Assembly (NCBI GenBank): GCA_965249595.1
Contig: OZ252242.1
Span: 1,718,158-1,782,157 of the forward strand
Reading direction: 5' to 3'
Length of the DNA: 64,000 nt
Origin: Chloroflexota bacterium
Lineage (GTDB): Bacteria > Chloroflexota > UBA11872 > VXNJ01
Position numbers and translations under genes: made by a program. Positions 17,267 to 62,584 of this stretch are shown piece by piece. A model generated the notes under the pieces. The model did not search any database, was not told where the DNA came from, and was given only the letters and a program-made list of their open reading frames with translations. Every line of letters begins with the position of its first letter. Within the stretch, counting starts at the first letter, position 1.

Positions 17267-17270
17267 ATAT

Positions 17271-18554
17271 CTAGGCCGGGATGCTCACGACCGACGCGAA
17301 TGCCTCCAGGAACAGATCGGCGTGTTCGCGCTTAAAAACCAGCGGCGGGCGAACTTTGAGCACGTTGCCGTGCTGCCCTGCCTTGCCCATCAGGAAACCG
17401 GCCTGCCGCAGCCTGTTCATGATCACTTCAGCCCCGTCTGGATCGGGCCCTCTACTGGCTCGATCCTTAACCCATTCAATGCCTATGAAAAGTCCGTGGC
17501 CCCGCACCTCGGCGATGGGTTCACAGCTTTGGCCGATCTCCTGCAGTTGATCTCGAAGGTACGATCCGACGGTCGCGACACTGTCGATCAGGTTTTCCCT
17601 TTCAATCACATCGATGACGGCTTGCCCCACGGCGGCTTGCAACGGGCTTGAAGCGAAGGTGTTGAAGTAACGCGTGCTGGAGCGAAAAGCGCCGACCAGC
17701 TCGGCCGATGCCACAACGCCGGCCAGCGGCAGGCCGTTGCCCATCGGTTTACCCAGCACGGCGATGTCGGGCACGAACCCGGAAGTCTCGTAACCCCACC
17801 AGCGGCCGGTGCGCGCGAAACCCGCCTGTACCTCGTCGCATATGAAAAGCCCGCCCGCGGCCCGCACCATCTGCGCCGCCCGGGCCATGAATCCCGGCGG
17901 AATATCGGGAAGCCCCTCGTTGGCCAGGATCGGGCAGAAAAGCACACCGGCAAATGGTATGCCGTCTGCGGCAAATCCATCGATCTTGTCCTGCAGCTGG
18001 CGAAGGTACGCCGCGGTGAGGGCGTCGCCATTTAGGCCCTCCTCGATCGGGCGATAGCTCTGCGGCATCGGGATCGAGCGGACCTCTTCAGAATCCTGGC
18101 CATGGACCCGGGTCAGCTTTCGCACCTCGGTCGAGTTGCCGTGATAGGCCGAGTCGGAGCAGATCAGACCACGCCCGCCGGTCGCGGCGCGGGCCATTTG
18201 GATGGCGACTTCATTGGCTTCCGTGCCGCTGCAAGTAAATACCGCAGTAGTGATCGAATCGGCGTGCAGGCCGGTGAGCCTCTCGGCATAGTCGAGGATC
18301 CCCTCGTGCAGATAGCGCGAGTGGACGTTTAGAGTCTCTGTCTGGCGCCGCATCGAATCGACGACATGGGAATTAGCGTGGCCAACGCAGGGCACATTGT
18401 TATATAGATCAAGGTAACGCTGGCCTTCAGCGTCGTAGAGCCAAACGCCCTCACCGCGTACGATGTGCACGGGGTCCTGGTAGAAGGTGGTAATTCCGGT
18501 GCCGAGCAACCGCTCGCGGCGGGCGATGAGTTCGGCAGTGGATAGCTTGCTCAT
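17271..18554 (-). CDS. Class-III aminotransferase-fold enzyme (aminotransferase or AGXT2L-type phospho-lyase)
   Basis: ICDEVQAGFARTGRWW, LGKPMGNGLPLAGV and SGTEANE class-III signatures. Ends 4 nt before the kinase start. Confidence 0.8.
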   Translation of the reverse strand: MSKLSTAELIARRERLLGTGITTFYQDPVHIVRGEGVWLYDAEGQRYLDLYNNVPCVGHANSHVVDSMRRQTETLNVHSRYLHEGILDYAERLTGLHADSITTAVFTCSGTEANEVAIQMARAATGGRGLICSDSAYHGNSTEVRKLTRVHGQDSEEVRSIPMPQSYRPIEEGLNGDALTAAYLRQLQDKIDGFAADGIPFAGVLFCPILANEGLPDIPPGFMARAAQMVRAAGGLFICDEVQAGFARTGRWWGYETSGFVPDIAVLGKPMGNGLPLAGVVASAELVGAFRSSTRYFNTFASSPLQAAVGQAVIDVIERENLIDSVATVGSYLRDQLQEIGQSCEPIAEVRGHGLFIGIEWVKDRASRGPDPDGAEVIMNRLRQAGFLMGKAGQHGNVLKVRPPLVFKREHADLFLEAFASVVSIPA

Positions 18555-37395: not shown

Positions 37396-40300
37396 CTAGT
37401 CATTTACCGGAACGGGCACCAGATAAACATCGTAAGCGGCATCAGTTCCCAACGGCTCGGCGGCGTGAAACGGATCGTGATCGGCGAAATCGGGAACCAG
37501 TTGATCTCTGAGAATGTCACCCAACAGGGCGAGTTTTACCGGCAGCGGATCGCCTGGATGATATTCAAACACCGCCGCCTGGAAATACTGGCGGGTGAAT
37601 CCATAGGTCGTGCCCTCCGCGTGCAGTCTGCCGTCAAGACGCACATCAACCCTGGCATCGGTTTTGGGAAAGCCGAATGCACCCACTCCGCCCAGGTCGT
37701 AGAAGAAAGCTGCGAAGCCAACTTCGGCTCCTTCTATTGAGAAATCCGATACCTTGTGACCCCAGGGACCAAACGGCTCTCCCGGGTTGGGGTTTAAAAT
37801 CCCGGGCTCGGTACCCTGGTCCAAAGAGCCACCTACACCACCGCCGAGAGAGTCCCAGCCCAATCGGCGTTCCACCAGCCAGCCCTGACCGACGTTGTGG
37901 AAATCGACTACACCGCGCTGATAGAACTGGGTTAAGGTGCCGGTTTCCAAAACCAGGACCTCAGAGGTTGGATAACCCCAGCGATCCAATTTTCCGGTGG
38001 CTTCATAGTGCGCCAGGAAGTTAGCCTGCACGACAAGGCCATTGTCAAGCGTTACTGTCAGGTTTGGAATGTTGTGGAGCAGGTCGCTTTTGCCCGGTGC
38101 CTGCACCGAGAGGCTGACGGCCACTTCAACGGCGTGGGCAAATTCGGGAAGGATCGGATCCGGCGGGACGATCCGCCGCCCACCGCCGCCTCCACCGCCG
38201 CCGCTTCTGCTGACGCTGCGGCGCAGCGATGGTCTACCGGATTGAGAGGGCGACCAGGCGCCGACGCCAGAAGAGTTTTCGGCCCGGATCTGCAGCTCAT
38301 AGTCGCTGTCGTTGTCAAGTGCCGGGAGAATAACCTCTAGGCGACGATCGCCAATCGCCCAGATACTTGACATCAGCGTCCAGGAACCTGGAACATCGGG
38401 CGCGCTGGCGAATTTGTGGCGAAGGTCATAGGACTCGACCCGGGCGCCGCCGTCGGAGGATGGCGGCCGCCAAACGACGGTAAGGAACTGATCTCCCGCC
38501 GTCGCGCTGGTGATATTCGGTGCGGTTGGCCGCTGCACAATGGTGGTTCCGGTCACCGGCTCAGACCGTTCGCCGGCGCCGACCGAATTGCGCGCCCTTA
38601 ACTCCACGTTGTAGCTGATCCCGTCAGCCAGCCCGAGGAGCGAGTACTCAAGGCTGCCACCGGTCCAGATACTTCGAACTTCGGTCCAAGAGCTTGCTTG
38701 GTCCGGATCTTCATTTTTCTTATAGCGAAGGCCGTAAGCTGTTATCGCGCTCCCGCCAGGATCCGTAGGGCTCTGCCAGCTGATCATCAATGTGCGAATT
38801 CCACCGATTACCGATTGGATAGCGGGGGGCCCGGGGACGGATATCGGTGTTCCGTCGCCAGATTCCGACCAACCACCGGAGCCGGCGATGTTGACGGCGC
38901 TAATTTGTACGTCGTAACCAGTCCCGTTGGCTAGACCACCCAGGGAATAGGCGAGGCGTCTACCGGACCAGACATCTTGAATTTGCGTCCACGATCCGGA
39001 AACATCAGGGGCGAGGCTTCTCTTGTGGCGAAGGTGGTAGGTGGCTATCTCAGCCCCGCCGTCGTCAATCGGCCTTTGCCAGCTGACGATCAAAGTGCGG
39101 TTGCCAACTTCGACCGCACTAACGGTTGGAATGCCCGGTATTACTACCGGAGTTCCGGAACGCGTTGAGGACCATGGTCCGGGATCCAGCTGAGAATCGG
39201 CGCGCACCTGGAGATCGTAGGACGTGCCGTTGGCCAACCCGGACAGTGAATACTGTCGGTTCCCGCCGGACAAGATGCCGATAACTGTGGTCCACGAACT
39301 TGGGCGGTCCGGATTCCGGCTTCTCTTGTGGCGAAGATCGTAATTGGTAATTGGTGACCCGCCGTCGTCCGTAGGGCTGAGCCATTCGACGGTCAATTCC
39401 CTGTCGTCAGCGGAAATAGTTCGGATAACCGGTTTTCGTGCATTGTCATTGGGCACGCCGCTGCGAGGACTCGACCAGCTTCCGCCGCCCGCCGCATTTA
39501 CTGCTCTGACCTGCACGTCATAGGGTGTGTCATTGAGCAATCCGGATAGTGAGTATTCGAGATTGCCGCCGGACCAGATATCGAGCGCCTCTGTCCAGGA
39601 GCCTGGCTCATCCGGATCACTGCTCCGCTTTCGACGAAGATCATAGCCGGTTACGACAGCCCCGCCGGTGGCTGATGGGCGTTGCCAGCTAATGATGAGT
39701 CCCTGGAAATAAGAGACGACTTCAGTGACATTAGGGCGCCCCGGCACCGTCCTGGGGGTAGCGTCACTGGACGTTGACCAGACACCTTCGCCTTCGGCAT
39801 TTACCGCTCTGATTTGAATGTCGTAGGCAGTTCCATTGCTCAGCCCGGAAGAAATCGAAAAATTGAGATTGCCGCCGCTCCAAAAACCCGAAACCAGGGT
39901 CCAGGAACCGGGCACGTCGGGGTCAAGGCTTCTTTTGCGTTGCAGGTCGTAGCCGGTAATTTCAGCGCCGCCGTTATCGCTTGGCTGATTCCAGTACACC
40001 GACAATTCCCGCGGTCCGGGTTCGATTTGGCTGATCGTTGGTGACCCGGGAACCGTTCTCGGGATACCGTTAGCGGATGTCGACCAAGCGCTGGCGCCAG
40101 CGGAGTTGACCGCCCGGACTTGGACGTCATAGGTAATTCCGTTGTCTATCCCGGTGGAAATCAGGTAGCTACGTTCGCGGATCGGCCAGACCGCAATGAT
40201 TTCAGTCCAGTTTCGATTCAGATCGGGAGCGCTGCCGCGCTTGTGCCGAAGGTCATAGCCGGTAATTTCAGCGCCGCCGTTAGCACCCGGGGGATCCCAA

Positions 40301-43300
40301 AAAACCTTCAGTTTTAGCGGGCCAGGATCAATTTTGCTGATGTTGGGTTCACCCGGGACTGTCCTGGGGGTACCGGTCCGGGGCGCGGACCAGGCGCCGT
40401 CGCCGCCGGCATTGACGGCCCTGATTTGCACATCGTAGGCAATCGAATTTTCTAGTCCGGAGACGGTGTATTCAAATCGACCTCCGGCCGATATCCGATC
40501 AATTAGGGTCCACGAGCCTTCAACGTTTGGGTCGCTGCTTTTCTTGTGGCGGAGGTCAAAGCTGGTAATCGATGCGCCGCCGTTTTGCGAGGGACTTTGC
40601 CAGCTGACGGTCAGCAAATTAACACCGGCCTCAACGTCGACAATCACGGCCGCTCCGGGTACCGTCCTGGGTGTGCCGTTGCGTGAAAGAGACCAGACGC
40701 CGTAATTAACTGCCGTGGCCGCCCTGATTTGAATGTTATAACTGGTCCCGTTTTCCAACCCGTAGACGGTGGCCTCGAGATCACCGCTCGACCAGGTCCT
40801 CAACTCCTCGGTCCAGGAACTCCCCTGGTCTGGGTCGGCACTCTTCTTGTGGCGAATGTCATAGTGAGTGATCTCGCCACCACCAACGTCGGTTGGGCGT
40901 TCCCAGAAAACTTTTAATTGCCGTGGATCGGGATCGATTGCGCTGATAATTGGCGCCCCCGGCGGTTTTTGCGGCATAGCGCTAAACGAAGTCGACCATG
41001 CGCCAAAGCCGGCGGGATTGACCGCCCTAACCTGTAGGTCATAACCGGTCCCGTTATCCAAGCCGGCAACGATGGCTTCGAGGTCGCCGTTCGACCAGAT
41101 GCCGAGATCCTCAGTCCAGGAACTCTCCTGGTCCGGATCGGCGCTCTTCTTGTGGCGAAGGTCGTAACTGGTGACCGCAGCACCCCCATTAAAAGACGGT
41201 CGCCGCCAGCTGATCGTCAGCGTGCCGTCTCCCGGTTTTGCCTGCCTGATGGTCGGTGCTCCAGGGATAGTTCGCGGCGTACCGATTCGGCTGTCTGACC
41301 AATCACCGCGGCCGGCGGCATTGACCGCTAGTATCCCCACCCAATACGATTCGCCGTTTTCAAGGCCAGTCAATACCAGGGCGAGTTTTGCGTCGTCGCC
41401 GGCGGTCCAAGCAGCCTGCAGTTCCCGCCAAGATCCGGCGACATCGGGGTCAATGCCTTTCGATAGACGCAGGTCATATGAAGTTATCGGGGCGCCGCCA
41501 TCGTTTGCGGGCACCGACCAGATGACGGTCAATCTGCCGTCACCGGGCAGCAAGGGGGAAAGCACGGGCTCGCTCGGGTAGGTATACGGCGTGCCCGTCT
41601 TTGTCTCTGACCAGGGTCCCGGGCCAACCGAATTTACCCCTCGCACCTGAGCTTCATAGCTATCGCCGCCCGCCAGCGGAGCGACGATGTGATTCGACCG
41701 ATAGCCGGCAATATCCTTTTCAATTACCCAATCGGAATCTTGCCGACCGGAGAAAAGACTTCGACTCCGAACTTCCCAATAATCTACCGGCGCCGTATCT
41801 TCGTCGGAATATTCCCAACTGACCTCCAGCGAAGATTGAGCCGGGGCGACTTTAAATTCGATAGCGATTGATGGAGGATCGATCGGAACCCCTTGGTCTT
41901 CAATCCAAAGGCCCGCACCGGCAATGTTTAACGCCCTGATTTGGACGTCGTATTTGGTGCCGTAGTCCAGTCCAGCAATCTCGTATTTGAGATCGCCGCC
42001 GGCCCAAAAGTTAAAAACTTCAACCCAGGCGTCTGCCGGATTGGGATCTTCGTTGTCCCGATAACGCAGATCGTAACCGGAAACCGCCGAGCCGCCATTG
42101 TCAAGCGGGACGGTCCAGCTGAGTTGCAGCAGTTTGATGCCGGGCTTTATCGAGATGCTCGCCGGCAAGCCCGGGGTAGTGCGAGGGGTTCCTGATGTCG
42201 CGTCGGACCAGCGGCCAATTACAGCCCCGCTGACGGCACGTATTGACACATCGTATTCGTGTCCGTTGGTTAGTCCGGTGATGGCATATTCGGTGCTCCC
42301 AGAACTCCAAATCCCATTGCGCACGGACCAGGACCCGGTCAGGTCAGGGTCACTACTAAATTTGTGGCGCGAATCAAACCTGGTAACCGTGGGGCCACCC
42401 GCTCCCGGCGTCCATTGCACGGTCAAATTGCCGGCTCCGCCGGTTAACGAATCGATGGTTGGTGAACCGGGGGCATTTTTTGGAGTTCTGCTCAACGTGA
42501 ACGACCACCCGCCGCCGCCAGCGGCGTTTGCCGCCTGGAGTTGGACATCATAGGAAATGTCGTTGGTCAGATTGGATATGTCGTGCCTAAAGATTTTGGG
42601 GCGATGTCCCCGGCGTTGTCAACCGGAGTCCAGCGGGAATCCGCCTTGTCGGTGGCGTCACTGCGGATGTAACGCAGGTTGTAGGCGGTAATCGGCGATC
42701 CACCGGTGTCGGTGAGTTCGGCCCAGATCACCTCGATACTCTGATCAAAGCCACTGGCCGCGGTGATGCTAGGAGTTCCGGGCGCTCTTCGCGGCGATTC
42801 CCGTCTGACCAGGGACCAAAGCCCGGACCCATTGGTGTTTTGAGCGCGAATTTGGAAGTCGTATTCGATGCCATTGGTCAAACCGCTGCTGACGGTGTGG
42901 GTGAGGGCGCCGCTCGACCAAATCGATGCTTCAACGGTCCATTCGTCATCGGCCCGTTTTTCGGCATCGGCCCTTATGAATCGCAGGTCGTAGGTTGTAA
43001 CCGGCGATCCACCGGTAACCGTCGGGGCTTGCCAGGTCACGGTCAGCGATCCGTCGCCGGGCGTGGCCACAGTGATCGTCGGGGACCGCGGAACCGGCGC
43101 GGGGGTGCCCGTCTGAGACTCCGACCATGGACCGTCGCTGTTGAGATTGACCGCTCGAATTTGAACATCGTATTCGATGGTGTTGACAAGCCCGGTCAGT
43201 AGATAACGCCGCGCTCCAGAACTCCAGATAATGCTTCCCTCAGTCCAGTTGCCATCCACGCTCTCGTCGGCATCGGTCCGGATGTGGCGGATATCGTAGG

Positions 43301-46300
43301 TGAGGATTTCCGATTCATGGTCCAATGGCGAGGGGGTCCACTCGACACTCAGCGCGGTGTCAGTCGCGGCCACCGAGTTGATCGTGGGCGTTCCAAGCGC
43401 CCGTTGGTGTCCGCGGGCGATGATCGCCCAGGAATTGAGCTAGCCGACGGTCCCTCTCCGGTTGTCGGTTATGCGCAGCGTCCAGTCCCCGGTCGGGTCT
43501 TCGCCCAGGTGGCGCGAAGTTCCAAAGTGAAATCGTCCCGACCACGAATATCCGGGTGAATTCAAATAGGTGGAAAGAACGGATATTGTCCCCGACGGCG
43601 ACTCCAGCTCGATGCGCAAATCGCGCGCCGAGCCATGTGAAAAGTCGATCGGCACCTCGATGTGTTCGACGAATGAGATTCCGTCCGGAACGGTGAGGGT
43701 GCTGCCGAGCGTATTCGTGCCCCGGGATGTTCGATCGGGAATTCGCAGATCCAGGCCGCCCGATTTGGCCTCCGCTTTTTCCAGTGGCGGGAGTTTGGTC
43801 CAGCCGGCGGCCATTTCGACAGCCGCCGCCGCATCAACCACTCCGAACCCGTAGGCGTGGTTGAAGGAGTACTTTTCTGAATCCTGTCGATACTTCGGGG
43901 CCCCTGCCTCCCAGCCGGAGTTGCGCGGGTCATTCTTGCGGGCCGAACCGGCCAGTATCAATTTGACGTCGCGCCAGGTGAGATCGCTCTTGGCCTTGCG
44001 AATCAGGGCGGCCACTCCGGATACCATCGGCGTTGACGCCGACGTGCCGCCGAAGCTGTCGCGATAGCGATCGAAGTTGTCGATGGTCGTAATTCCCCGC
44101 GCGCCTACGCGCCGGGAATCATTGGACGGTGCGCAGACCCACAGGTTGGAACCGGATTCGGAATAGTTGACCTGTTTTCCCTGGTCGGTGACCGCACAGG
44201 CCGCTACGACTCCGTAGAAGCTCGCCGTCTCGTCCAGATTCGAATAGTCGCCTTCCCTCCGCCCATTGCCGCCGGCAAAGACGTAGACCGTACCCTTTCC
44301 GCCGGCACCGTCGGCCAACCCGGCTTCGACCCCCAATTTCCACGGCAGGGATTGGGTTTTCAAACCCGGCCTGTCACTTCCGCCCCAACTGTTGTTCGAC
44401 ACATCGGTAACCTCGCGCTCGGTCGACATCGCTATCCCCTTGTTCACGTCGGTGGCCGAAAGGAGCAAATTGAATCCGTAGATGGTAGCCCGTGGAGCTA
44501 CGCCGCGGACGCCTAAATCGTTGTCGCGGGCGGCTATGATGCCGGCGACTCCGGTGCCGTGATTTGCAGTATCCCGGTGGACATCATCGCGATTCCCAAA
44601 GTCAAGATTTCGGCTCGCTTCGACGTTATCGATCAGGTCTTCGTGGGAATGATCGAGTCCGTTGTCGACCACCGCCACCCGAATTCCTTCGCCCATGTTG
44701 GAACCCCACACGCCGGAGACATTTATGTCTTCACCTGCGGTTGCGCCGTCGCGGCCTTGGTTATTCAGGTGCCACTGGCAGCCGTAAAGGTCGTCATCGT
44801 AGGCGGTTGCGATTGCGCTGCAATCAGTGATAAAGGACTCGTAGGCGGTATTGCGCCGCAGGGTAAACGAATACTGAGTGTTAAACGTGACCAGCGTTGA
44901 GGGCCTGGCGACAATCAGCGAAGTGACCCGATAAAAATAGGTGCCCGGATCCAGTCGGTAGGCGAAACCATCTCCCGGGACCAGGTTCCCGCTTACGTCA
45001 AAAACTCTGTAGTCGAGCACGGGTAAGAAGTCACTGCCAATCGCGAACGCGACTTCGGAGGTCTGCGTCAGCGCGAATTCATATAAGTCGAAATCATCAA
45101 ATCCTGATATATCGGCGGAAACTTTTCGATTGAAACTGAGTGGAACCGCCGATCCAGACGGGTCAAAATTCTCCGGCGTGCGATCGAGGTGTAGCGTGTA
45201 ACTGCCGCCGCGCGAACCCGAAAGTTCAACTTTTATGTAATAGGTTCCCGGTGCCAAGTCGGCGCGGATATGGAAGTTGTTGGTAATGCGCTGAAAGCCC
45301 CAAGTATCGTTGCTGTCAATCCCGGTGCCGTCCTGCCTTTGCAGGGCACCGACGGTGTTCAAAACTCCTGTCGTGTAAGCGCGAATATCGGTTGCCTCGG
45401 TTAATTCAAACTCGAAGAAATCAATGTCGTCGCCATCGAAGGCGATTTCCTCAATCTCCTCACCGATCCCGATCGTGGTGGCAGTGGCGCGGCTGCCGCC
45501 GGCGTCAACGACGGTCTCGGCATGCAAGGTGTAGGGACCGCCGTTGCCGATCCTAGAAGTGGACTGATAGGCCGAAACGGCAACGTAGTAGATCCCGGCC
45601 GCAAGTGATCGCCGAATCAGGAAATTTAGCCCCTCGGACTCCAGCACGTGGTCATCGTTGGCTTCCAGCAAATCCTCGTCTTCAGCAAACAGGTGCCCGA
45701 CGGTGTCAGTTCGTCCGGTTGTGTAAATGAGCACATCGGTGGCGGACGGCAGCGTCAGTTGGTATGTGTCGACATCGGTACCGGGAAAGATCTGCTCGTC
45801 CACCGATCCATCAAGGGGCAGCGTGCCGGCGGTGGCGATGGTGTTGCCCGGCTCCGTCCACAGAGCGACACTCAGTTGATAGGACCCGGTCAGGGCATTT
45901 ACGCCATCGCGATAAGAGCGAACTTTGACGTAATAGGTTCCCGCGTCGAGTCGCGCGTTGATCTGGAAATTGAGTAAGCTGGCGAAGAAGTCGATGTCAT
46001 CGGACGCCGAAATCTCGTTGCCGTCACTGTCTTGCAGCTGCCCGACGGTGTCCAGGTTGCCGGTCGTGTAAATGTCAACGCTCGTTGGATCGCTAAGGAC
46101 AAGGCGGAAGAAATCTTCATCGGAACCAGGGTCGATGCTGCCGGCCAACGGCGTGCCCACGCTGATTGCCGTGGCCGTGGCCCGATCATTGCCGTGATCA
46201 TCGATGGTCAATTGACCAGTCGCGGCGCCGGAGGAGACGAGCAGGCCGGCAACTGCGGCAATCGCGGCCAGCAGACCACCAATATTGCGACGGTTACTTG

Positions 46301-46352
46301 AAATCGGCCACATTCCCGGGGTGGCCGGCATTCGAACGTGGTCAGTTGGCAA
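37396..46352 (-). pseudogene. Giant cell-surface S8 subtilase / PPC x4 / P-domain / ~18 FN3 / LGFP-like protein, broken by in-frame TAG (43440-42) and a frameshift (42570-42618)
   Basis: Signal/TM anchor, four PPC-like domains, catalytic triad D (VVDNGLDHSH), H (HGTGVAGII), S (GTSASTPMVSG), and a proprotein-convertase P-domain. ORFs 43440-46352 and 42567-43373 are in-frame, separated by TAG plus 22 sense codons (..GTPTINSVAATDTALSVEWTP). The 1699-aa ORF frame is open upstream to 42619 with FN3 sequence (..ISYDVQLQAANAAGGGGWS). The C-terminus has (L/W)G(F/Y)P...Q.(F/Y)Q.G repeats. Confidence 0.65.
37900..43400 (-). repeat. Tandem array of ~18 fibronectin type-III coding repeats (~285 nt period)
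   Basis: Recurrent SYDLRHK.S.DPD..SW......W..G.LEY...GL.NGT.YD.Q.RA.N..G.G.WS....GTPRTVPG.P.I. Confidence 0.7.
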
Positions 46353-52422: not shown

Positions 52423-52867
52423 GCCGTAAGCCTTTCCGTTGCTGCCCGCCAGCGAAGGAGCAGCGAATTGTCCGCAAAGTGAAATTATTGACCCCGGGCC
52501 CAGAATCGGTCGACTCGAAATTGGCTTCGGCGGCGGCGCTCAGCTCCCGGGTGCTGATGCATTATCAGGGCATGGATCAATTTGCGCCGCGAATGCAAGT
52601 CAAATTCAGGCGCCGGTGTTTTCGAAATCAAATTGAAGAGTTAGCGTAAGCGGAACGAACGCTGAGCAAACGGCACCTTTGCCAGCCCGGCGGAAATTTC
52701 GAAATTGGAAAGCGCTCCAGCGCCCGCGGCGGCAAAAGCTGGGCCCGCTGTTCGCGGCGAGGGCAACCGATTCCGACAATTCGCTCGGCGAACGCCCGCA
52801 GTCGGCGTCGTATTGAGCTCTATTGCCGAGGTTTGTCAAATAGGTCGAGCGCAAATCGCCCTATCAA

Positions 52868-53896
52868 TTACCAACCGATGTCGTAGCTGAGCAATTTGGC
52901 GTTGACGATCGTGATCAGGCCGATAACGATGAACAGGACAAACGAGAGCGCAGCGGCGAATCCCATCTTCAGGTTCAGAAATGCTTCCAGGTAGATGAGC
53001 ACGACGAGCGTAACCGTCGCATCGACCGGTCCGCCGCAGCTCCGTGTCAGGGAGTCGCCGCAGGTCATGATGAAAACTTGGACGAACATCTGTAGCGCGC
53101 CGATGAAGTAGACGATCACCACAAAGTAAGTCGTGGGCGCCAGCAGCGGTATAACAATCTTGAAGAACTTCGAAAGCCGGCCGGCCCCGTCGATATCGGC
53201 CGCCTCATAGAGATGCGGCGGGATTCCCTGCAATCCGGCCAGGTAAATGACCATATTCAGCCCCATGTTTTTCCAGATCGACATGAGGACGATCGCCAGC
53301 AGGGCGGTGTCTTGATTGAGCATCCACTTGATTGGCGGTTGATCAAGGACCCGCATGAATTCGCCGGTCAAGCCAATCTGGGGCTCGTAAATCCACAGAA
53401 AAATTATTGACACCGCCACGAATGAGGAGACCACCGGCATGTAGAACATCGCCCGGAAGAAATAAATCCCGCGGATCGCCCGATTGATCAATACGGACAG
53501 GAGAAGGGAAGTAAATACTCCGGCCGGAACCGTTCCCACGGCAAACAGCATGGTATTGCGAATCGCTGGCAAAAATCGCGGCTCGGCACCGATTTTGATG
53601 TAGTTGGAAAGCCCGTTCCACTCCGGCGCCGTGAGCAGGTCGTACTTGTTAAACGAGTAGTAAAGAGCGCTGATGATCGGGACAATTATGAAAATTGAAA
53701 TAAAAACGATTGACGGCAACACGAACAGATAAGCCGACAGGCCGCCACGGTAGGTAAATCCCATCCGGTGCCGCCAAGTCCTTGACGTACGTTTCGAAGT
53801 AACCGCCATTGCCCCACTCGCCATTAACGGGCCGCAACATCCAATTTCATTATGCGGTGGCCAGTTCCGTAATGCGTCATCGGATATTGAAATCAT
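52868..53896 (-). CDS. Carbohydrate ABC transporter permease, UgpA/MalF-type (paralogue 1)
   Basis: EAA loop EAADIDGAGRLSKFFKIVIPLLAPT, six TM helices, N-terminal YLFVLPSIVFISIF...YYSFNKYDLL. Confidence 0.8.
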   Translation of the reverse strand: MISISDDALRNWPPHNEIGCCGPLMASGAMAVTSKRTSRTWRHRMGFTYRGGLSAYLFVLPSIVFISIFIIVPIISALYYSFNKYDLLTAPEWNGLSNYIKIGAEPRFLPAIRNTMLFAVGTVPAGVFTSLLLSVLINRAIRGIYFFRAMFYMPVVSSFVAVSIIFLWIYEPQIGLTGEFMRVLDQPPIKWMLNQDTALLAIVLMSIWKNMGLNMVIYLAGLQGIPPHLYEAADIDGAGRLSKFFKIVIPLLAPTTYFVVIVYFIGALQMFVQVFIMTCGDSLTRSCGGPVDATVTLVVLIYLEAFLNLKMGFAAALSFVLFIVIGLITIVNAKLLSYDIGW

Positions 53897-54423
53897 CGAC
53901 TAGGGCACTTGCCAGGGTGTAGCCAACGCCATCGCCGCTGCCTGTGCTGATCGCGGCCGTACTTGCAGGCACGATTCAAAAACCGGACCATCACCGCCGT
54001 TGCGCCAAACAAGTAGATCCTGGCAATCCCGGTCGTTGTTGCTCCATGGCGGCGACGAACTCCTGCGGCCGCGGGCTTTCGATGTGCCCCCATAGCCCGC
54101 GGCGGCCTTGCCGCGACCGGGCGCGGTGGTCGGCCAATTGATCCTGACCGGTCCCCGATCCAGTGGCCGGAAAGCCGCTCAACCAGGTTAGGTCAGGCCC
54201 GTCCAAGCGTCGATGGTCTACCCGAAACTGAAAGACGCGCGGATCTGGTTACACGTCGCAGATCCAGTCGCTGCCGATCAGGTGATGGGCATTTGAATCA
54301 GGGCTCGGGCTAACTAATTCATTGGGGATTATCTACTTCACCTAGACACTTTGCTCGGCCCTGCGATAGTTGGTACTAGGGCTTAACCCCCTTTACCGTA
54401 TGTGGTATACAGGGGGCGGGCAA

Positions 54424-54588
54424 ATGCAGGATTCGTCAGGCGACGCCAAGAAGCAGTCGCGCCGCGCACGTAGCAGCGGCAAACCTTCGGCTAAGTTTCT
54501 TAGCGGCGCCAAGGAATTGGCGCGGGCGATCTTTCGCGATGCGGACCGGAAGCGGCGAAGGAAGCCGAAACGCAGCTCAGACAGTTAG
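54424..54588 (+). CDS. Small highly basic hypothetical protein (54 aa)
   Basis: ATG preceded by AGGGGG at 7 nt; Lys/Arg-rich (KKQSRRARSSGKP...RKRRRKPKRSS). Confidence 0.3.
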   Translation: MQDSSGDAKKQSRRARSSGKPSAKFLSGAKELARAIFRDADRKRRRKPKRSSDS

Positions 54589-54611
54589 CAACTTGGCGGG
54601 CCCCTTTTCCG

Positions 54612-56522
54612 CTAGCGTCGCCCGACAAGAACTTGCCGGTCGTCGTTATATCCAATCAGAACCGCGCGGGTGGTGCGTGAATTGACCGGTTGAACAGCGA
54701 CACCCAGTTTTGCCGGGCCCGTTGCATCACCAAAGCCTGTCGCACCCACAGCCACCTGGAACAACTCTTCAAGGTTGTCCCGGAGGTTCCGCCACCACTC
54801 CCGGTCCGATCTATGGTCCGGTACGAAGTGGACTGCGTATGCTCCGTCCTCCTCCACCATGAGCCGCCCAGCCAGAGTCACCACGCGGCCAAAGGGGATC
54901 GCTTCGAGAACCTGCGACGGGTCGCGTACGTTCACCCGCTGCACGTACTCGCCCCGATTCATCTCCACCACCAGATCGTAGGTGTCCTGGAACACGACCG
55001 TGCCACCGACCCTCACGCACTCATCGCGGAACACGTCGCCGGCCACCGCAATCTGCGCGTGCGTCGGGATCGCGGGAGAGTCCAAGGGACACGGTTTATC
55101 GCGAGGCGAGACCACATCGAGGCTGAACAGGACGACCAAGACCACCACCCCTACGCCTACCAGGCTTACCACCCATATGAAGCACCCGCGCAGGCCCCCG
55201 CCGCTCTTCGGTTCCTCAATCAGTCTTTCTCCCTTGTATTGTTGAAACCCGCCCGATGGTGGTGGTGGCGCACCTTCCCAAGAACTGTGCTGTGAATCCG
55301 GATCACGGGCTATGTCCTGGATTTCGTCGGCGGTCTCCCTGTGCACGGCCTTCCCGGTATCCGGCGACTCCAATTCAAGTAGCTCGAGCTCATGACCAAT
55401 CCCCGCGGCCGCTTTCGCCGCATCGCCCGACCTTCCGCTCAGGTACCACTCCGGCGCGTGCATGAAACCGTGATAGGCCGCGTCCAGGTCGGCGCCCTGC
55501 AGGGAGGATGCGCTGCCGGATCCAAACCACGGCGGAGCCGAGCCTGCCACGTCAAGCCATGGCTGGGCCACATTCAGCGCCACGGCATAGGGCAACATGG
55601 AAGCAGCTTGGTGCAGGGCATAGGGCGGGGCAGATCCGGCCAGCGTCTTTTTCCAGCCCAGCCACTGACTTATCTCATCCGCTCCCCTCTGCGTTGTCGG
55701 CACCATGCCGGTTCGTATCGACGGCGCCATCACCAAATATGCGAAACCTGTGAACGCGCCGATCAGGGCGTTCGCCCACCACTGGTCCAGCCACAGAGCC
55801 GCCCAAAGCCCGCTGCCAACGCCCATCAAGGCGCCGGCCAGCATCCCCCATCCGATTGCATCGTCGTCGTTTTCCCTCCTGACTCGCAACGGATTGTCAT
55901 GGAAAAGGCCGCGATGCTGCAGGTAGTCCCCTATCTGGTCGCCGATGGCATCCTCGCGCTTCTTTACCGCTTCATGGAGCGCATCAACAGTTGTGGCGCG
56001 CGACGGCATGCTTTCGCATATCGTCCGCTCCCAGTCATGCTGTACGGGAGCCTGCCTAGACAGCCGGTACAGGAAGCCGACCCTTGTTCCGACGGCTTCG
56101 ATTCGCAGCGTGCCGCGCTGGCACATCTCGATGATGGAGGCCAGCAGCGTCGGACTCCATATCATGTGGCCTTCCAGCGCAGATACCGCCGCCGCGGGCA
56201 TTGAACCGGGTTGTGGGGGGCCCGAGTCCCACGGGCGTCGATGCTCCTCGGACGCCTGCGGGGGCCGGAACTTGGGCCACAACCACAGCACGATGATGAG
56301 CAGCTGCGCTACGACTACGCCTATCGTGCGGAAGCCCCAGACCGCCAGCTGCTTCCAGTCCATCTCCCGGAATTCGGGAAAGCCGCTTTCGGCGATTACC
56401 CCGCCTGGGTCCATCGCGAAAAGCAAGCTGATGGCGGCAAGGGCCGCCACTGCTGTCACCGAACTCACAATGGCCTTCCTTCCTTCTCGGTTCGCACTGC
56501 TTGACTTGACTCCGCCGGACAA
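54612..56522 (-). CDS. DUF2207-like polytopic membrane protein with extra C-terminal TM plus extracytoplasmic domain (tentative)
   Basis: TLLASIIEMCQRGTLRIEAVG...FLYRLSRQ, LPYAVALNVAQPW and a Gly-rich PPSGGFQQ...GGGL region resemble the DUF2207 core. Additional TM FIWVVSLVGVGVVVLVVLFSL plus a 190-aa tail. Confidence 0.45.
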   Translation of the reverse strand: MSGGVKSSSANREGRKAIVSSVTAVAALAAISLLFAMDPGGVIAESGFPEFREMDWKQLAVWGFRTIGVVVAQLLIIVLWLWPKFRPPQASEEHRRPWDSGPPQPGSMPAAAVSALEGHMIWSPTLLASIIEMCQRGTLRIEAVGTRVGFLYRLSRQAPVQHDWERTICESMPSRATTVDALHEAVKKREDAIGDQIGDYLQHRGLFHDNPLRVRRENDDDAIGWGMLAGALMGVGSGLWAALWLDQWWANALIGAFTGFAYLVMAPSIRTGMVPTTQRGADEISQWLGWKKTLAGSAPPYALHQAASMLPYAVALNVAQPWLDVAGSAPPWFGSGSASSLQGADLDAAYHGFMHAPEWYLSGRSGDAAKAAAGIGHELELLELESPDTGKAVHRETADEIQDIARDPDSQHSSWEGAPPPPSGGFQQYKGERLIEEPKSGGGLRGCFIWVVSLVGVGVVVLVVLFSLDVVSPRDKPCPLDSPAIPTHAQIAVAGDVFRDECVRVGGTVVFQDTYDLVVEMNRGEYVQRVNVRDPSQVLEAIPFGRVVTLAGRLMVEEDGAYAVHFVPDHRSDREWWRNLRDNLEELFQVAVGATGFGDATGPAKLGVAVQPVNSRTTRAVLIGYNDDRQVLVGRR

Positions 56523-56894
56523 CCGCCTTTCAGACTACTTTTGGGAGAGCAGTTGTCGCCAGGCGATACGTGCGCACAGCAACGCTGTCGGCTGCGCGAT
56601 TGAATAGAAATCGGCAGCCCCCTTCCTTTATGGAAGACCCGTTACGATGTCGGCGTCAATTTCCGCTGGGAGCGAGTCTGGTCGATCGGCTGCGACTCGG
56701 CGCCGAAAATCATGTGTATGAGATCCGCCGGGCATTTTGAGATGCAGTCGGCGTAGGTCTAGTTACGTATATAAACGCCAATTCATTACTGCCGGTCGCT
56801 GCCCGAAGACAACTGCGATAAAGCTGCGTTGCTCATGCCGAGATACCGCGAAATTTGATTTCGTCAATATTGATTTCGGCCAAGGGACCCCTGG

Positions 56895-57845
56895 TCACCA
56901 GCCAATTTCATAGCTGAGCAACTTGGCATTTACGATCGTGACCAACGCGATAACGATGAACAGCGCGAATGACAGGGCGGCGGCAAATCCCATCTTCAGA
57001 GCCAGGAATGCCTCCAGATAGATGAGCATGACGATCGTGATCGTTGAATCGACCGGTCCGCCACATATCCTCGTGCCGTCATCGCAGGCCATTATGAAAA
57101 CCTGGGTGAACATCTGCAGGGCGCCGATGAAATAGACGATCACCACGAAATAGGTCGTAGGCGCCAGCAGCGGGATAACTATCTTGAAGAATTTGGATAT
57201 TCGACCGGCCCCGTCGATGTCGGCCGCCTCGTAGAGATGCGGCGGAATTCCCTGCAGGCCGGCCAGGTAGATGACCATGTTGAGGCCCATGTTCTTCCAG
57301 ACCGACATGAGGATGATTGCCAACAGCGCGGTGTCGGCGCTTTGCATCCAGCGAATTGGCGGCTGGTCGATGATCCGGAGGAGTTCACCGATCAAGCCGA
57401 AATGGGGTTCATAAATCCAAAGAAAGATAACCGAGACGGCCACGAAGGACGATACAACCGGCATGTAGAACAATGCCCGGAAGAAATAAATCCCGCGGAT
57501 CGCCCGATTGATCAATACGGCCAGCAGCAGCGAGGTGACCACCCCCGTCGGAACGGTTCCGAAGGCGAACAGCAAGGTGTTGCGGATCGACGGCGGGAAT
57601 CGCGGTTCGGTCGAGATTTTTAGGTAGTTGTCAATCCCGTTAAACACCGGCGCCGTGAGCAGGTCGTATTTGTTAAACGAGTAGTAAAGGGCGCCGATGA
57701 TCGGAACGATCACGAACAGCATGATCAATAGGATCGAAGGCAGCACGAACAGGTAGGCCGCCAATCCGCCGCGGTGTGATATCCCCAGCCGCTGCCGCAT
57801 AGTCCGGCGCGGCGGTTTACTTACTGCTGCCACCACACATCCCAA
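56895..57845 (-). CDS. Carbohydrate ABC transporter permease, UgpA/MalF-type (paralogue 2)
   Basis: About 80% aa identity to paralogue 1; same EAADIDGAGRISKFFKIVIPLLAPT motif. Confidence 0.8.
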   Translation of the reverse strand: MGCVVAAVSKPPRRTMRQRLGISHRGGLAAYLFVLPSILLIMLFVIVPIIGALYYSFNKYDLLTAPVFNGIDNYLKISTEPRFPPSIRNTLLFAFGTVPTGVVTSLLLAVLINRAIRGIYFFRALFYMPVVSSFVAVSVIFLWIYEPHFGLIGELLRIIDQPPIRWMQSADTALLAIILMSVWKNMGLNMVIYLAGLQGIPPHLYEAADIDGAGRISKFFKIVIPLLAPTTYFVVIVYFIGALQMFTQVFIMACDDGTRICGGPVDSTITIVMLIYLEAFLALKMGFAAALSFALFIVIALVTIVNAKLLSYEIGW

Positions 57846-57942
57846 TCAGGCCATCTGAACCTCTGAGTTGCGCCCGCGCCATTATCTCTTGCAAGGGTGA
57901 GCCGTCAACCAGGGTCAACGTTTCACATCTGATCAGTTTCGA

Positions 57943-58623
57943 TCAGCGCAATAAGCCCCGCGCAATTTTTCGCGCCACGATCCGGCGAACTTCGCCATCG
58001 AGGCTGCCATTCTCTTGCGCCAGTTCGGCCAGGCCGCCACCGGCCAGCAGAATCGCCCAGCGGTAAATGCCCTCCGCGTAAGCCGACCCGCCGTCCAAGA
58101 CCGGCGCGTCGGTTAGCACTTCGTCAAGCAACTCGATGACGACCCTGGCAATGCGCTCATGGAAGCGGACCGAAACGGCGTCGGCGTCGTCGCCCTGGTG
58201 GAGGGATTCCTGGAACCAGGCCATGCCGTTTAGGTGCCGGCTGCGGGTGCGCGGGTAGAAGGAGGCCATCAGGTTCCAGGGATCGGCGCCGGGCCGCATA
58301 TCTCCGCCATGACGAAAATCGGTCCGCAAGATCACTGCAGGAACATCCAGGGTCTTGGCGTACATGTACTCCACGACGGTGCCCGAATCAAGTTCCGAGC
58401 CATCGAAGTTAAACAGCGCCAGATCGCATTCCATCACCGCCTGCAGGTCGCGGTCGCGTATCAGCATCGGCGAGGATTTCCGCTGCTCAAAATCCTGCGG
58501 CAGGACGCACTTGTAGCGGCCCTCGGAGGTTTCATCAATCCGCGCTCCGAGCAGGGCGTTGCCGGCCAGGTCCTTGTGGTCCATCAGGGGCCCGGCGAAA
58601 TAAATGGTGTAGGGCTCGGTCAT
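57943..58623 (-). CDS. Nucleoside 2-deoxyribosyltransferase-like protein
   Basis: YTIYFAGPLMDHKD and DSGTVVEYMYAKTLDVPAVIL resemble NDT-family motifs (IYLAGPLF ... DSGTAFEIGYA..GKPV). Confidence 0.5.
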   Translation of the reverse strand: MTEPYTIYFAGPLMDHKDLAGNALLGARIDETSEGRYKCVLPQDFEQRKSSPMLIRDRDLQAVMECDLALFNFDGSELDSGTVVEYMYAKTLDVPAVILRTDFRHGGDMRPGADPWNLMASFYPRTRSRHLNGMAWFQESLHQGDDADAVSVRFHERIARVVIELLDEVLTDAPVLDGGSAYAEGIYRWAILLAGGGLAELAQENGSLDGEVRRIVARKIARGLLR

Positions 58624-58841
58624 GGGTTTTGTCGCCTGGAACGGATGTTCGCTTGCCCGTCGCTTTTATAAGCCCCGAAGATCTGTCGCCAGTAGGTCGG
58701 GCACGGTGCGATTGCCTTCCATTTTCCGACAACCCGGCGGTGCGATTTCATTTTCAAACCGGTTGCCAGCGGGGGCCGAGGCAATTTCCCAAGCCCGGCT
58801 GGAACTGCCCAAACGCTGCTCAGTCGAATATTTGGGGGCGA

Positions 58842-59885
58842 TCAGTAACCGATTTCATAGCTGAGCACCTTGGCGTTAACGAGCGTTATCAAAGCGATAA
58901 CCGCGAACAGGATCACCGAAATGGCCGCCGCGTAGCCCATTTTCAAGTTGATGAACGCCTGGGCATAGATGTGCATCACGATGGTGATCGTCGAATCGAG
59001 TGGTCCGCCGCAAATGCCCTGCCCGGTCAGGCAGGTCATGACGAATACCTGGGTGAACATCTGCAGGGCGCCGATGAAGTAGACGATCACCACAAAGTAG
59101 GTCGTGGGCGCCAGCAGCGGAACGACGATCTGGAAAAATTTTGACAATCGGCCGGCCCCGTCAATTTCGGCTGCCTCATAGAGATGCGGTGGGATCCCCT
59201 GCAATCCGGCCAGGTAGATGACCATGTTGAGGCCCATGTTCTTCCAGACCGACATCACGATGATGGAAATCAGTGCGGTATCCGGGCTGCGCAACCATTT
59301 GAGCCCAGGCAAGTCCATGGACCGCAGCGCCTGATTACCGATTCCAAATTGCGGTTCGTAGATCCAGAGAAAAATTACCGCCACCGCCACAAACGACGAG
59401 ACGACCGGCATGTAGAACATCGCCCTGTAGAAATAGATCCCGCGGATTGAGCGGTCGATCAGCACCGCCAGCAACAGCGACGAGACCACGCCGGCCGGTA
59501 CCGTTCCGGCGGCAAACAGCAAGGTGTTGCGCATGGCCGGCAAAAACCTAAGGTCTTTTCCAACCGCCGCGTAATTGCCAAGGCCGGTCAGTTCGGGCTG
59601 GGTTAGCAGGTCGTAATCGGTAAGCGAGTAATAGACCGCACCAAAAATGGGAACTATTACAAATAGACCGATAAAAATGATCGACGGAAGGACAAACCAG
59701 TAGGCGGTTAATCCACCGCGGCTGGTGAGCCCCAATTTGCGACGCCAGGTCATCCTGGGCGCATCGGCCAATGCGATCAATACATTTCTGCTGCTGCGGG
59801 CCCTGGCAATTATCCCGGTATTGCAAATCGCGCCTGCCCGCTTGGGTGCCGGCCCTCTTAATCCAGATGGGCCAACGCTGCCCAC
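58842..59885 (-). CDS. Carbohydrate ABC transporter permease, UgpA/MalF-type (paralogue 3)
   Basis: EAAEIDGAGRLSKFFQIVVPLLAPT; about 70-75% aa identity to paralogues 1 and 2. Confidence 0.8.
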   Translation of the reverse strand: MGSVGPSGLRGPAPKRAGAICNTGIIARARSSRNVLIALADAPRMTWRRKLGLTSRGGLTAYWFVLPSIIFIGLFVIVPIFGAVYYSLTDYDLLTQPELTGLGNYAAVGKDLRFLPAMRNTLLFAAGTVPAGVVSSLLLAVLIDRSIRGIYFYRAMFYMPVVSSFVAVAVIFLWIYEPQFGIGNQALRSMDLPGLKWLRSPDTALISIIVMSVWKNMGLNMVIYLAGLQGIPPHLYEAAEIDGAGRLSKFFQIVVPLLAPTTYFVVIVYFIGALQMFTQVFVMTCLTGQGICGGPLDSTITIVMHIYAQAFINLKMGYAAAISVILFAVIALITLVNAKVLSYEIGY

Positions 59886-60036: not shown

Positions 60037-61218
60037 ATGGCCCGCCAACCGCAACTTCTCAATTACGAACGGGCCATGGCCAATCTGGCCAGCAACCGCT
60101 ATGACGTCCTGCTCGCCGGCGGGTATGTCAACTTCGGTTACCTGACCGATTTCTTCACCCACTTTGGTCGCGATTTTCCGGGTCCACTCTACAACGGGTT
60201 GCCGCTGGTCCGTTTCGCCGGCCTGCCCTCTGACCCTTCGCTGCCGCCGTTCTATGTAACCTGCCCCGACGAGGAGGAGGATGCGGTGCTGCAGGGAAGC
60301 TGGATAGCCGACGGGCAATTTGTGGGGCCGGCTTCGGAACTGCCGGGGCCGGGATCGGTCCCCAATACCATTGCCGAGCCCTACCTCGCCGTGGCCGAGG
60401 CTCTTCGCCAGCGCGGGTTGGCCGATGGGGTCATTGGAGTGGACTTGGCCGACATTTCGGCTCTGACCGCCGAGCGCCTGGGCGCCGCCCTGCCCAATGC
60501 CCGGATCGTCAATGCCAGCGCGGTCTTCGGAACCATTCGTCAGGTCAAAACGGCCAATGAAATTGAACGGCTGTGCGGTGCGGTGCGCGGCAGCGAACGG
60601 GGTCACGCGGCGGCGGCGGCGGCAATGCGGCCGGGCATAAGTGAACGCGAACTGGCGGGTTCTATACGTGCTGCGATCGCCGACGCCGACACCGCAAGCT
60701 ACATATTGCACCTTAGCGCCGGCGGTCTGACCGCCACCGTGCTGCCGCCGACCGACCGTCAGTTGGAGCAAAACAGCATCGTTGCGGTCGACGTCGGCTG
60801 CATTCACCGCAACTACACAGGCGACAAGTTTCACATCTACGCACTGGGCAGTCCGCCGCCGCAGGCCTATGAAATCCATGCCCGGCTGGATGAGGTCAAC
60901 GCCACATTGATCGAGTCGCTTCGGCCCGGGATAACCGGTGGGCAACTTTTCAATATCGGGCGCAAGGGGCTGGAAGATCGCGGTCTCGACCTGGCCGGCG
61001 CATTCGTCGGCCATGGGATCGGGATTGACATCCACGAGGACCCGTACCTCTCGCCGGGTGTCAACGACCGCCTCGAAGAAGGGATGGTCATCGTCCTGGA
61101 GGCCGGAACTCGAAACGAGCAATTGGGTCACTTTTGCTCGGAAATTACGTGCCTGATCACCCATGATGGTTGCCAATTGCTAACCCAGATGGGCCACTCG
61201 ATTACCAACGTCACTTAG
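60037..61218 (+). CDS. M24-family metallopeptidase (Xaa-Pro aminopeptidase/creatinase-like)
   Basis: Pita-bread fold motifs HGIGIDIHEDP, VLEAG and the D..D..H..E..E metal ligands. Confidence 0.8.
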   Translation: MARQPQLLNYERAMANLASNRYDVLLAGGYVNFGYLTDFFTHFGRDFPGPLYNGLPLVRFAGLPSDPSLPPFYVTCPDEEEDAVLQGSWIADGQFVGPASELPGPGSVPNTIAEPYLAVAEALRQRGLADGVIGVDLADISALTAERLGAALPNARIVNASAVFGTIRQVKTANEIERLCGAVRGSERGHAAAAAAMRPGISERELAGSIRAAIADADTASYILHLSAGGLTATVLPPTDRQLEQNSIVAVDVGCIHRNYTGDKFHIYALGSPPPQAYEIHARLDEVNATLIESLRPGITGGQLFNIGRKGLEDRGLDLAGAFVGHGIGIDIHEDPYLSPGVNDRLEEGMVIVLEAGTRNEQLGHFCSEITCLITHDGCQLLTQMGHSITNVT

Positions 61219-61401: not shown

Positions 61402-62283
61402 CTAGTTGTAATCTCCGTGGGCCCCGGTTCCGCTGGGATCGACAAGTTCATCGGCCCCGCAGAGATAGCGCCACCAGCGGGCTCGCTCGCCCACCGCCCA
61501 GGCCGATTCACCGGTGAGCACATGGGTGTCTTTGGCGCTTAAGAAATGGCGTCGAATCTCCGGGCTGTCCCAGCCCTCGGTATTGAAAATTTTGCGCTGT
61601 TCTACCCGCGGGTTGTAACGGATCTTGAACATGTAGCGATAGCGGTCGGTCTCGTTGGTCTGGGCGCAGTGCCAGAGCCCTTCGTGCAGGAAACAAATCC
61701 GTCCGCCGCGGCCAGCGAGGCGGCGCTGCCCGACGATGTTCTTGTAACGCCCGGTGTCAGGGCCCATCATTGAGCGAAGGTGGGACCCGGGCAGGACCAG
61801 CGTGGGGCCCATTTCCACTGGTACGTCATGGGTGAAATAGGCGGTGAGGATATCGAACGAGTAGGGGTGGACGCCGGGCAGGCGGATCTGGCGTCTCCCG
61901 CCGGAGTCCACATGCCAGAGCTGGGCTTCCTGCTGGTAGGGATAGGTAACGTGCAGGGCGGAATGGTTTTGAGCGTAACCCGGACCCAGCAGGCTTTGCA
62001 GGGCTCCGCGAATTGCCGGCAGCTCGTGGATATCCTGCATCGCCGTTGAATAGTCGTAAAAACCATTCTTGTTGTCGGTGATGTGCCAGGCGAATTCACG
62101 CTTACGGCCGTCGTCATCCACCGCCGTCAGCTCGTCGGCGAGGGCTCGTTCATTGAGTTCGTCCGGGATCAGATCGTCAAATTCAAGGTATCCATCGATG
62201 ACGAAACGAGCCATCTGCTCAGCCGTTAGCAGGTGTTCGGGCCCCACCGCCGCGGCGGATTCGGCGATATCAACGGTTGCCAC
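61402..62283 (-). CDS. Phytanoyl-CoA dioxygenase (PhyH)-family Fe(II)/2OG oxygenase
   Basis: HVDSGG (H-x-D) facial triad region and family-wide similarity. Confidence 0.7.
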   Translation of the reverse strand: MATVDIAESAAAVGPEHLLTAEQMARFVIDGYLEFDDLIPDELNERALADELTAVDDDGRKREFAWHITDNKNGFYDYSTAMQDIHELPAIRGALQSLLGPGYAQNHSALHVTYPYQQEAQLWHVDSGGRRQIRLPGVHPYSFDILTAYFTHDVPVEMGPTLVLPGSHLRSMMGPDTGRYKNIVGQRRLAGRGGRICFLHEGLWHCAQTNETDRYRYMFKIRYNPRVEQRKIFNTEGWDSPEIRRHFLSAKDTHVLTGESAWAVGERARWWRYLCGADELVDPSGTGAHGDYN

Positions 62284-62317: not shown

Positions 62318-62584
62318 CTAGTCGACCAATTTTTCCAGTATGTACTCGTTGGACAATCCGCCCAAGCCCTCGCCGACCCGACGTTCCGGGACCGGGCTGG
62401 CCTGGATCACGCGCCAGCCGTCGCGCATGGCGGCAATACCGGTGGGATAGGGTGGGACGTTTTCGCTGCCGGCCTGCATCTGAACTTCATCTTCCGATAG
62501 CGACCCATCGTAGAGCGCCCAGGCCATGATTTCAGAATTCAAGTCACCGTTGCGCAGGTTTAGGAACAAGAGTTTCTGGCGCAC
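62318..62584 (-). CDS. Small hypothetical protein (88 aa) co-oriented upstream of PhyH gene
   Basis: ORF only, 34 nt upstream of PhyH on the same strand. Confidence 0.35.
   Translation of the reverse strand: MRQKLLFLNLRNGDLNSEIMAWALYDGSLSEDEVQMQAGSENVPPYPTGIAAMRDGWRVIQASPVPERRVGEGLGGLSNEYILEKLVD

Follow-up and report, generated by a model that had tools for sequence, protein, structure and literature searches.

The main finding of this study is that three permease genes in a stretch of DNA from a Chloroflexota bacterium (contig OZ252242.1; the whole stretch of 64 kb that was analysed is called the window here) make up one locus of a lineage-specific, multi-copy gene family and, judging from the sequences compared, are no local oddity. 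Their predicted products are first membrane subunits of the MalF/UgpA/SugA type, belonging to the CUT1 class of ATP-binding cassette (ABC) importers. It is well known that importers of the maltose/sugar class are heterodimers, the two membrane subunits of which are encoded side by side, and both genome annotation and transporter censuses assume so. The proteins described here are ordinary in fold; what is unusual is their genomic architecture and its implication for the assembly of the complex. We consider it an even chance that the partner-less copies are alternative first subunits that assemble in trans. Each solitary copy would then join a MalG/UgpE-type subunit encoded elsewhere, the likeliest partner being the single, very conserved MalG-type subunit of an operon found in related genomes. 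Each complex would be completed by an MsiK-like ATPase, shared between complexes, and by binding proteins encoded at unlinked sites, and a paralogue-specific, probably disulfide-stapled loop before a conserved GGP motif would help to set which binding protein or substrate is accepted.

The three open reading frames (ORFs) reported by the first-pass annotation, which was made from the letters alone, are present at 52868-53896, 56895-57845 and 58842-59885, all on the minus strand. Paralogue 1 is called at 52868-53764 in the source assembly (298 amino acids), with an alternative start possible at 53824; paralogue 2 lies at 56895-57800 (301 amino acids, identical to P0001) and paralogue 3 at 58842-59780 (312 amino acids). 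Protein identity is 81% between paralogues 1 and 2 and 72% for each of the pairs 1-3 and 2-3, in agreement with the 70-80% first estimated, and overall DNA identity is 72-80%. The DNA likeness described near the 3' ends is also real, since ungapped repeat blocks in the 3' halves of the paralogues are far beyond chance, but these blocks are 71-82% identical and the 80-85% claimed was slightly too high. Each protein carries one BPD_transp_1 domain (Pfam; 37.4, 42.9 and 43.7 bits against a gathering cut-off of 26.4). With 298-312 amino acids and a single domain each, they are not fused two-domain permeases, which would have two BPD_transp_1 domains in about 550 amino acids or more. The NCBIfam ranking is the same for all three, with UgpA first (140-149 bits), followed by GlcT (96-113) and MalF (63-68), and no UgpE or MalG model matched at E<=0.01; GlcU matched one copy only, at 16.4 bits. 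The UgpA scores do not reach the cut-off of 335 bits of the equivalog NF007852, and on this basis the three paralogues are classed as UgpA-like, not as UgpA. All PDB relatives of paralogue 2 at E<=1e-3 are first subunits (4tqu_M AlgM1, 7cad_A SugA, 2r6g_F MalF and 8ja7_A SugA), and a MalG-type hidden Markov model (HMM) gives about 20 bits on family members versus 100-140 on true MalG-type genes. The UgpA/MalF first-permease type that was first assigned is thus borne out by both NCBIfam and the PDB relatives. The proteins share with MalF, SugA, AlgM1 and UgpA a single BPD_transp_1 domain in about 300 amino acids and an EAA loop, and they too are predicted to have six helices, with a GGP motif ahead of the final one; unlike those proteins, the family comes without encoded partners, is present in at least 7-13 copies per genome and, in the subclade that includes the window genes, has an inserted Cys-X6-10-Cys. 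Paralogue 2 aligns end to end with SugA (residues 15-294 with 24-292), which supports the six-helix core fold. An AlphaFold2 model of the same protein, built from a shallow alignment, has six long helices and two short coupling helices at a mean pLDDT of 52 and a pTM of 0.31.

Scans of the whole window agree with the first-pass annotation that a UgpE-type partner, a binding protein and an ATPase are all missing. A six-frame scan with phmmer --max found no other BPD_transp-like segment in the 64 kb, neither of two signatures of ABC ATPases, Walker A GxxGxGK[ST] and LSGGQ, occurs in any frame, and a binding-protein query from the clade gave no tblastn match below E=0.1 anywhere in the window. 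When a canonical CUT1 binding protein and permease pair was searched against the window by tblastn, only the three genes matched. The immediate neighbours of the paralogues carry other Pfam domains, and SBP_bac_1/8 is outside the 25 commonest Pfam families listed for the rest of the window. As first noted, non-coding DNA follows each permease downstream, in gaps of 445 bp for paralogue 1 (52423-52867), 372 bp for paralogue 2 (56523-56894) and 218 bp for paralogue 3 (58624-58841), beyond which lie unrelated genes with GPP34, DUF2207_C and Nuc_deoxyrib_tr domains, respectively; a further gap of 715 bp lies upstream of paralogue 1 (53897-54611).

The absence of the partners and these non-coding gaps of 218-715 bp are what one would expect if, as was first proposed, three CUT1 operons had degraded and lost their binding proteins and second permeases, with these genes left behind to decay as pseudogenes, and another family copy in the window's genome is indeed truncated beside transposase genes. 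The flanks, however, do not bear this out. When the canonical CUT1 trio of a related genome, L062 (binding protein, MalF-type and MalG-type permeases), and the three window permeases were searched by tblastn against the six flanks, no partner remnant was found below E=0.1 in a search space of about 2 kb. Downstream of paralogue 1, the gap resembles neither permeases of the MalG or MalF type nor binding proteins, no partner remnant is seen downstream of paralogues 2 and 3, and neither a remnant nor an Rfam match was found upstream of paralogue 1. The small ORFs of the flanks, among them those on both sides of paralogue 1, have no Pfam match at E<=1, and none of the gaps has an Rfam match to a riboswitch or other RNA element at E<=1. 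At the DNA level the flanks do not resemble one another, so that the duplicated unit appears to be essentially the gene body. In addition, all three ORFs are intact. The ratio of nonsynonymous to synonymous substitution rates (dN/dS) among the three copies is 0.13-0.17 at a dS of 0.85-1.3 and, to orthologues in another closed genome, 0.07-0.14; all comparisons together span 0.06-0.17. These low ratios at such a dS indicate that the duplications are old and the genes still constrained. In a neighbour-joining tree of 100 unique family sequences each window copy groups with orthologues from other genomes, and we conclude from these comparisons that the three genes are old, constrained duplicates. 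The solitary state also recurs in relatives of only 61-65% identity, and about 90 of 101 family members are partner-less in 13 other genomes. It is therefore very improbable that the genes are decaying operon remnants, and this explanation is effectively excluded.

The size of the family was determined in species-representative genomes, from which 74 loci of 13 metagenome-assembled genomes (MAGs) were collected on the basis of the best 80 of 116 matches; their six-frame translations were compared with the window proteins and with the MalG-type HMM, which was built from 120 homologues. Full-length family genes, defined by phmmer scores of 340-560 bits where ordinary MalF-type genes reach 190 or less, number 101 in these loci, and most of the MAGs sampled have at least 7-13 copies. 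Only 11 of the 101 adjoin a MalG-type gene, at most one per genome except for two in a single genome. The remaining members, about 90, are either solitary or in tandem arrays, with arrays of two to four family genes at 17 loci, and on other contigs the distant members (61-65% identity) likewise stand alone. The records with exact or near matches derive from marine and sponge metagenomes and bear the label 'Chloroflexota bacterium'. Taken together, these data identify the family as a lineage-specific multi-copy expansion. The neighbours of its members are heterogeneous, including M24 peptidase, sulfatases, hydantoinases, panBC and others. When 123 immediate neighbours were compared with Pfam, they gave 18 sulfatases, 11 BPD_transp_1 proteins, which are the MalG-type genes, and 10 PD40 proteins, the rest being scattered; SBP_bac_1/8 and ABC_tran are outside the 25 commonest of the 75 families matched. 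A sulfatase lies within 500 bp at 15 of the 63 partner-less loci (L012, L015, L016, L018, L020, L031, L041, L050, L051, L053, L066, L073, L075, L077 and L081), often in convergent orientation at the end of a tandem array, and somewhere in the collected locus of about 10 kb at 28 of the 63; the window itself has none. This association suggests that some paralogues handle sulfated substrates. As a caution for the copy numbers, two assemblies of one locus differ in the same family gene, which is intact in L008 (260 amino acids, 7665-8447) and broken into pieces of 85, 77 and 50 amino acids in L009 (6970-8503), reflecting either a homopolymer or frameshift assembly error or a real pseudogenisation.

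The family also has a conventionally partnered member. In relatives of the window's host, a binding protein, a MalG-type permease and a family permease form an operon in which the family permease starts 6 bp after the MalG-type gene, and this operon is syntenic in at least nine species representatives and many metagenome contigs. In order, the syntenic block comprises, on the opposite strand, genes for an ornithine decarboxylase and an NHL protein, then the operon itself, and after the family permease a PD40/Tricorn-like gene (opposite strand), two sulfatases with an SDR gene, VKOR and DsbA genes (opposite strand) and two more sulfatases. The PDB relatives of the MalG-type protein are SugB, MalG and AlgM2, followed by two much weaker molybdate/sulfate ModB-type chains, with no first subunit among them. 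The gene is not expanded: three clusters hold all homologues with at least 80% identity, and the next ones have 65% or less. No gene of the block is better conserved than the MalG-type one (94-96% identity); the binding protein follows with 88-92%, the family member has 84-86%, and the neighbours range over 63-88%. The nearest relatives, which have 83% identical orthologues on contigs of 2,318,408 and 2,393,548 bp, carry the operon. On this sequence evidence, the family is one that evolved from, and still includes, a conventionally partnered member. A second, different MalG-type/family pair was observed in MAG CAJWLF, a bin of Tara sample ERR599156 (L033:9064-9930 and L067:19473-20564); its MalG-type gene is 35% identical to the core one, and the MAG also has a separate ordinary pair. 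There has thus been more than one kind of linkage between a family member and a MalG-type gene.

Two regions of the proteins bear on how the partner-less copies may work. The EAA loop is the site at which the ABC ATPase docks in type I ABC importers, and paralogue 2 has such a coupling loop (EAA-x3-G-x9-I-x-LP-like) between transmembrane helices (TM) 4 and 5: EAADIDGAGRISKFFKIVIPLLAP. Its core EAADIDGAG, residues 191-199 encoded at 57204-57230 (minus strand), is the predicted docking site. EAAxIDGAG and the cytoplasmic region around it show little or no variation among the 100 family sequences, and the cytoplasmic face including this loop is the most conserved part of the family. Because the EAA loop is nearly invariant, coupling to an ATPase has apparently been retained, and by their sequences family members still appear able to dock an ABC ATPase. 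The second region is an outer loop, Cys239-X6-Cys246-GGP in paralogue 2 (57054-57086, minus strand), which is placed between the predicted TM5 and TM6 on the extracytoplasmic side, as the secondary structure in the low-confidence model and the loop's position relative to the cytoplasmic EAA loop suggest. A Cys-X6-10-Cys directly before the conserved GGP is present in every member of the subclade that holds the window genes, none of which adjoins a MalG-type gene, and neither the partnered members nor the other clades have these cysteines. What lies between the two cysteines varies by paralogue: the loop reads C-GDSLTRS-C-GGP in paralogue 1, C-DDGTRI-C-GGP in paralogue 2 and C-LTGQGI-C-GGP in paralogue 3, and elsewhere PHTQIN, NDPAGS, QDAQGN, DYETNI and others are found between the cysteines. 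The loop residues are nevertheless identical among orthologues of only 80-83% overall identity, such as those of paralogue 2 in at least four other genomes. The loop is probably stapled by a disulfide bond, and it may set specificity. By the pseudo-symmetry of MalF and MalG, it would sit at the counterpart of the 'scoop' loop that MalG contributes in MalFGK2. A VKOR gene and a DsbA/thioredoxin-like gene were noticed in the sulfatase cluster beside the partnered operon (L086-L095, at about 16696-17864; in L093 at 16696-17145 and 17142-17864, minus strand). Such genes are machinery for disulfide formation outside the cytoplasm, which fits the Cys-loop of the partner-less permeases; a role in sulfatase maturation or export is also possible.

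The confinement of the Cys-Cys loop to the partner-less subclade speaks for a rival reading, in which the partner-less permeases would form the pore alone, either as homodimers, as was already suggested among the explanations first listed, or as dimers of paralogues, powered by a shared ATPase. The loop, given its pseudo-symmetry with the MalG scoop, could then stand in for what MalG would otherwise contribute. For every adjacent MalG-type gene there are about nine family genes, and in the arrays of two to four copies each position has its orthologues in other genomes; both points also speak for such an arrangement. Homodimeric type I importers do exist, and the membrane domains MetI2, ModB2 and ArtM2 are examples; as in those systems, a single permease gene that sufficed would explain the solitary genes. 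Those examples, however, are from other ABC importer families, whereas the solved relatives of the present family and its own partnered member are heterodimeric. Every solved CUT1 transporter that was matched pairs a MalF-type with a MalG-type subunit, and the partnered member is encoded only 6 bp after its MalG-type gene. Many copies are true singletons, so that obligate pairing of paralogues is not general, and even the paired genes are loosely coupled where full gene calls are available, with 374 bp between the copies in L097 and whole genes between the copies in the window. We regard pore formation by the family alone as less likely than assembly in trans, but as a serious rival to it.

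It may also be asked whether the copies work outside ABC import altogether, as scaffolds, regulators or sensors, or are maintained for another reason. No linked partner of any kind is found and the neighbours are heterogeneous, as such a role would allow. On the other hand, a family whose EAA loop and cytoplasmic face are its most conserved parts is hard to explain without an ATPase partner, and the sulfatases that abut 15 of the 63 partner-less loci fit a role in substrate uptake. We therefore consider a non-transport function improbable.

Assembly in trans is favoured because the partnered member is a conventional heterodimer subunit, because the MalG-type gene is single and highly conserved, and because ATPase sharing is already the rule in the clade, where canonical CUT1 operons (e.g. 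L062) have no adjacent ATPase. In the window's own genome, such a canonical operon (binding protein, MalF-type and MalG-type permeases) lies about 470 kb from the window locus on a 728-kb contig of a second assembly; it likewise has no adjacent ATPase, and its MalF-type gene is outside the family. The proposal that the permeases borrow partners encoded elsewhere is thus the best supported of the three explanations first offered, backed by the conserved operon of the relatives and by this canonical operon. Several points weigh against it. Cluster listings and look-ups of two MalG-type variants led to other samples, and no partnered operon was found for the genome of the window itself. In a control canonical operon the MalG-type protein (68%) is also more conserved than the MalF-type one (62%), and since this operon shows the same trend, the extra conservation of the MalG-type protein in the partnered operon lends only weak support. 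The structural model of paralogue 2 is of low confidence. Finally, to our knowledge a membrane subunit shared among several partners is no established mechanism in CUT1 importers, and no precedent for it in this class was found in the literature. Among the nearest parallels are MsiK of Streptomyces and MsmK of streptococci, the shared 'multitask' CUT1 ATPases. Like them, the arrangement suggested here would have a component encoded away from the operon serve many transporters, in a clade whose CUT1 operons have no adjacent ATPase; unlike them, it would be a membrane subunit, not the ATPase alone, that is shared or exchanged. A more elaborate form of assembly in trans, a combinatorial importer in which one MalG-type hub and one shared ATPase serve about a dozen interchangeable MalF-type subunits, each with a hypervariable disulfide-stapled loop that would select the binding protein or substrate, is put forward only tentatively.

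So many maintained first subunits versus essentially one linked second subunit imply either that subunits are swapped or that a MalF-type subunit works without MalG, and neither is established for this class. Either outcome would change the uptake capacity inferred from metagenomes of abundant marine and sponge Chloroflexota, and the family would offer a tractable system in which to ask how type I importers choose their partners and substrates. If, instead, the copies use known partners in trans with unchanged specificity, the finding would amount to a modest annotation note. Paralogue expansions of flavin monooxygenases, the enolase superfamily, sulfatases and MFS transporters have been described in SAR202 and sponge-associated Chloroflexota (PMC6306507, PMC10444878), and the expansion of a single ABC permease subunit is unreported in these two papers. 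The present family resembles those expansions in its many diverged paralogues and its association with sulfatases, though the records of the host state 'Chloroflexota bacterium' only. If the combinatorial importer is real, it would be the transporter counterpart of enzyme expansions thought to serve feeding on diverse marine and sponge organic matter, including sulfated compounds. A literature search on orphan or solitary MalF-type permeases, or on an imbalance of COG1175 and COG0395, returned nothing relevant.

Around the window genes, the Pfam matches agree with the first description of the interleaved genes. A DUF2207_C membrane protein is encoded between paralogues 2 and 1 (54612-56468, minus strand; 618 amino acids as called, ORF to 56522) and is no conserved neighbour elsewhere, and a nucleoside 2-deoxyribosyltransferase-like gene between paralogues 3 and 2 (57943-58623, minus strand) is absent beside family members in other genomes. 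Paralogue 3 adjoins the divergent gene of an M24 (creatinase/prolidase-like) peptidase (60037-61218, plus strand), which is the only conserved neighbour: peptidase genes 62-71% identical to it are found beside family members in L008/L014, L010, L011, L013 and L022, and the linkage is conserved in six genomes, each with two or three family genes in differing combinations. The deoxyribosyltransferase-like, DUF2207-like and GPP34 genes were considered as functional partners and rejected, as they are not beside family members in any other genome examined. Because the M24 linkage is conserved and these three genes are not at the locus elsewhere, the window locus is best read, by this comparison of gene order, as a hot spot of the family at which genes specific to the lineage have broken up the array. 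Just upstream of the M24 hot spot in L008 (1-5910), and also in L010, L014 and L022, there is a complete Dpp/Opp-type peptide ABC system (SBP_bac_5, two permeases and two ATPases). The window has no such system at the equivalent position, and the copies linked to M24 could conceivably have a role connected with peptides. Promoter-like and terminator-like sites in the region show no excess over shuffled sequence. One sigma-70-like site (57881-57908, minus strand; 10/12, TTGACG-16 nt-GATAAT), which precedes the start of paralogue 2 by about 80 bp, is consistent with an independent transcription unit for this gene.

The window's genome has at least five family copies, namely the three in the window, one at about 1.06 Mb and an adjoining truncated copy. 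The truncated copy (192 amino acids; L096:9048-9626) is beside DDE transposase and PIN genes, and the sister strain has two intact copies of 315 amino acids there (L097:8679-9626), so that this locus reflects a strain-level loss, apparently through an insertion sequence. The genes upstream in L097 (amidase, aminotransferase and APH) were also considered as a rearranged piece of the window, which was rejected as they gave no blastn match. Elsewhere in the window, an IS110-family transposase was detected in the Pfam census of positions 1-49730, and two very large ORFs lie at 37396-42495 and 43440-46352 (minus strand; 1699 and 970 amino acids). The strong matches in the window to fn3, purple-acid-phosphatase-N, NHL and subtilase probably belong to these two ORFs, which may encode large secreted or surface proteins. 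Near the family locus, a PhyH dioxygenase gene (61402-62283, minus strand) is accompanied by an 88-amino-acid ORF without a Pfam match (62318-62584, minus strand), and this pair recurs beside distant family members in L004-L007, as seen from the Pfam context, and in L067, where the two proteins are 46% and 38% identical.

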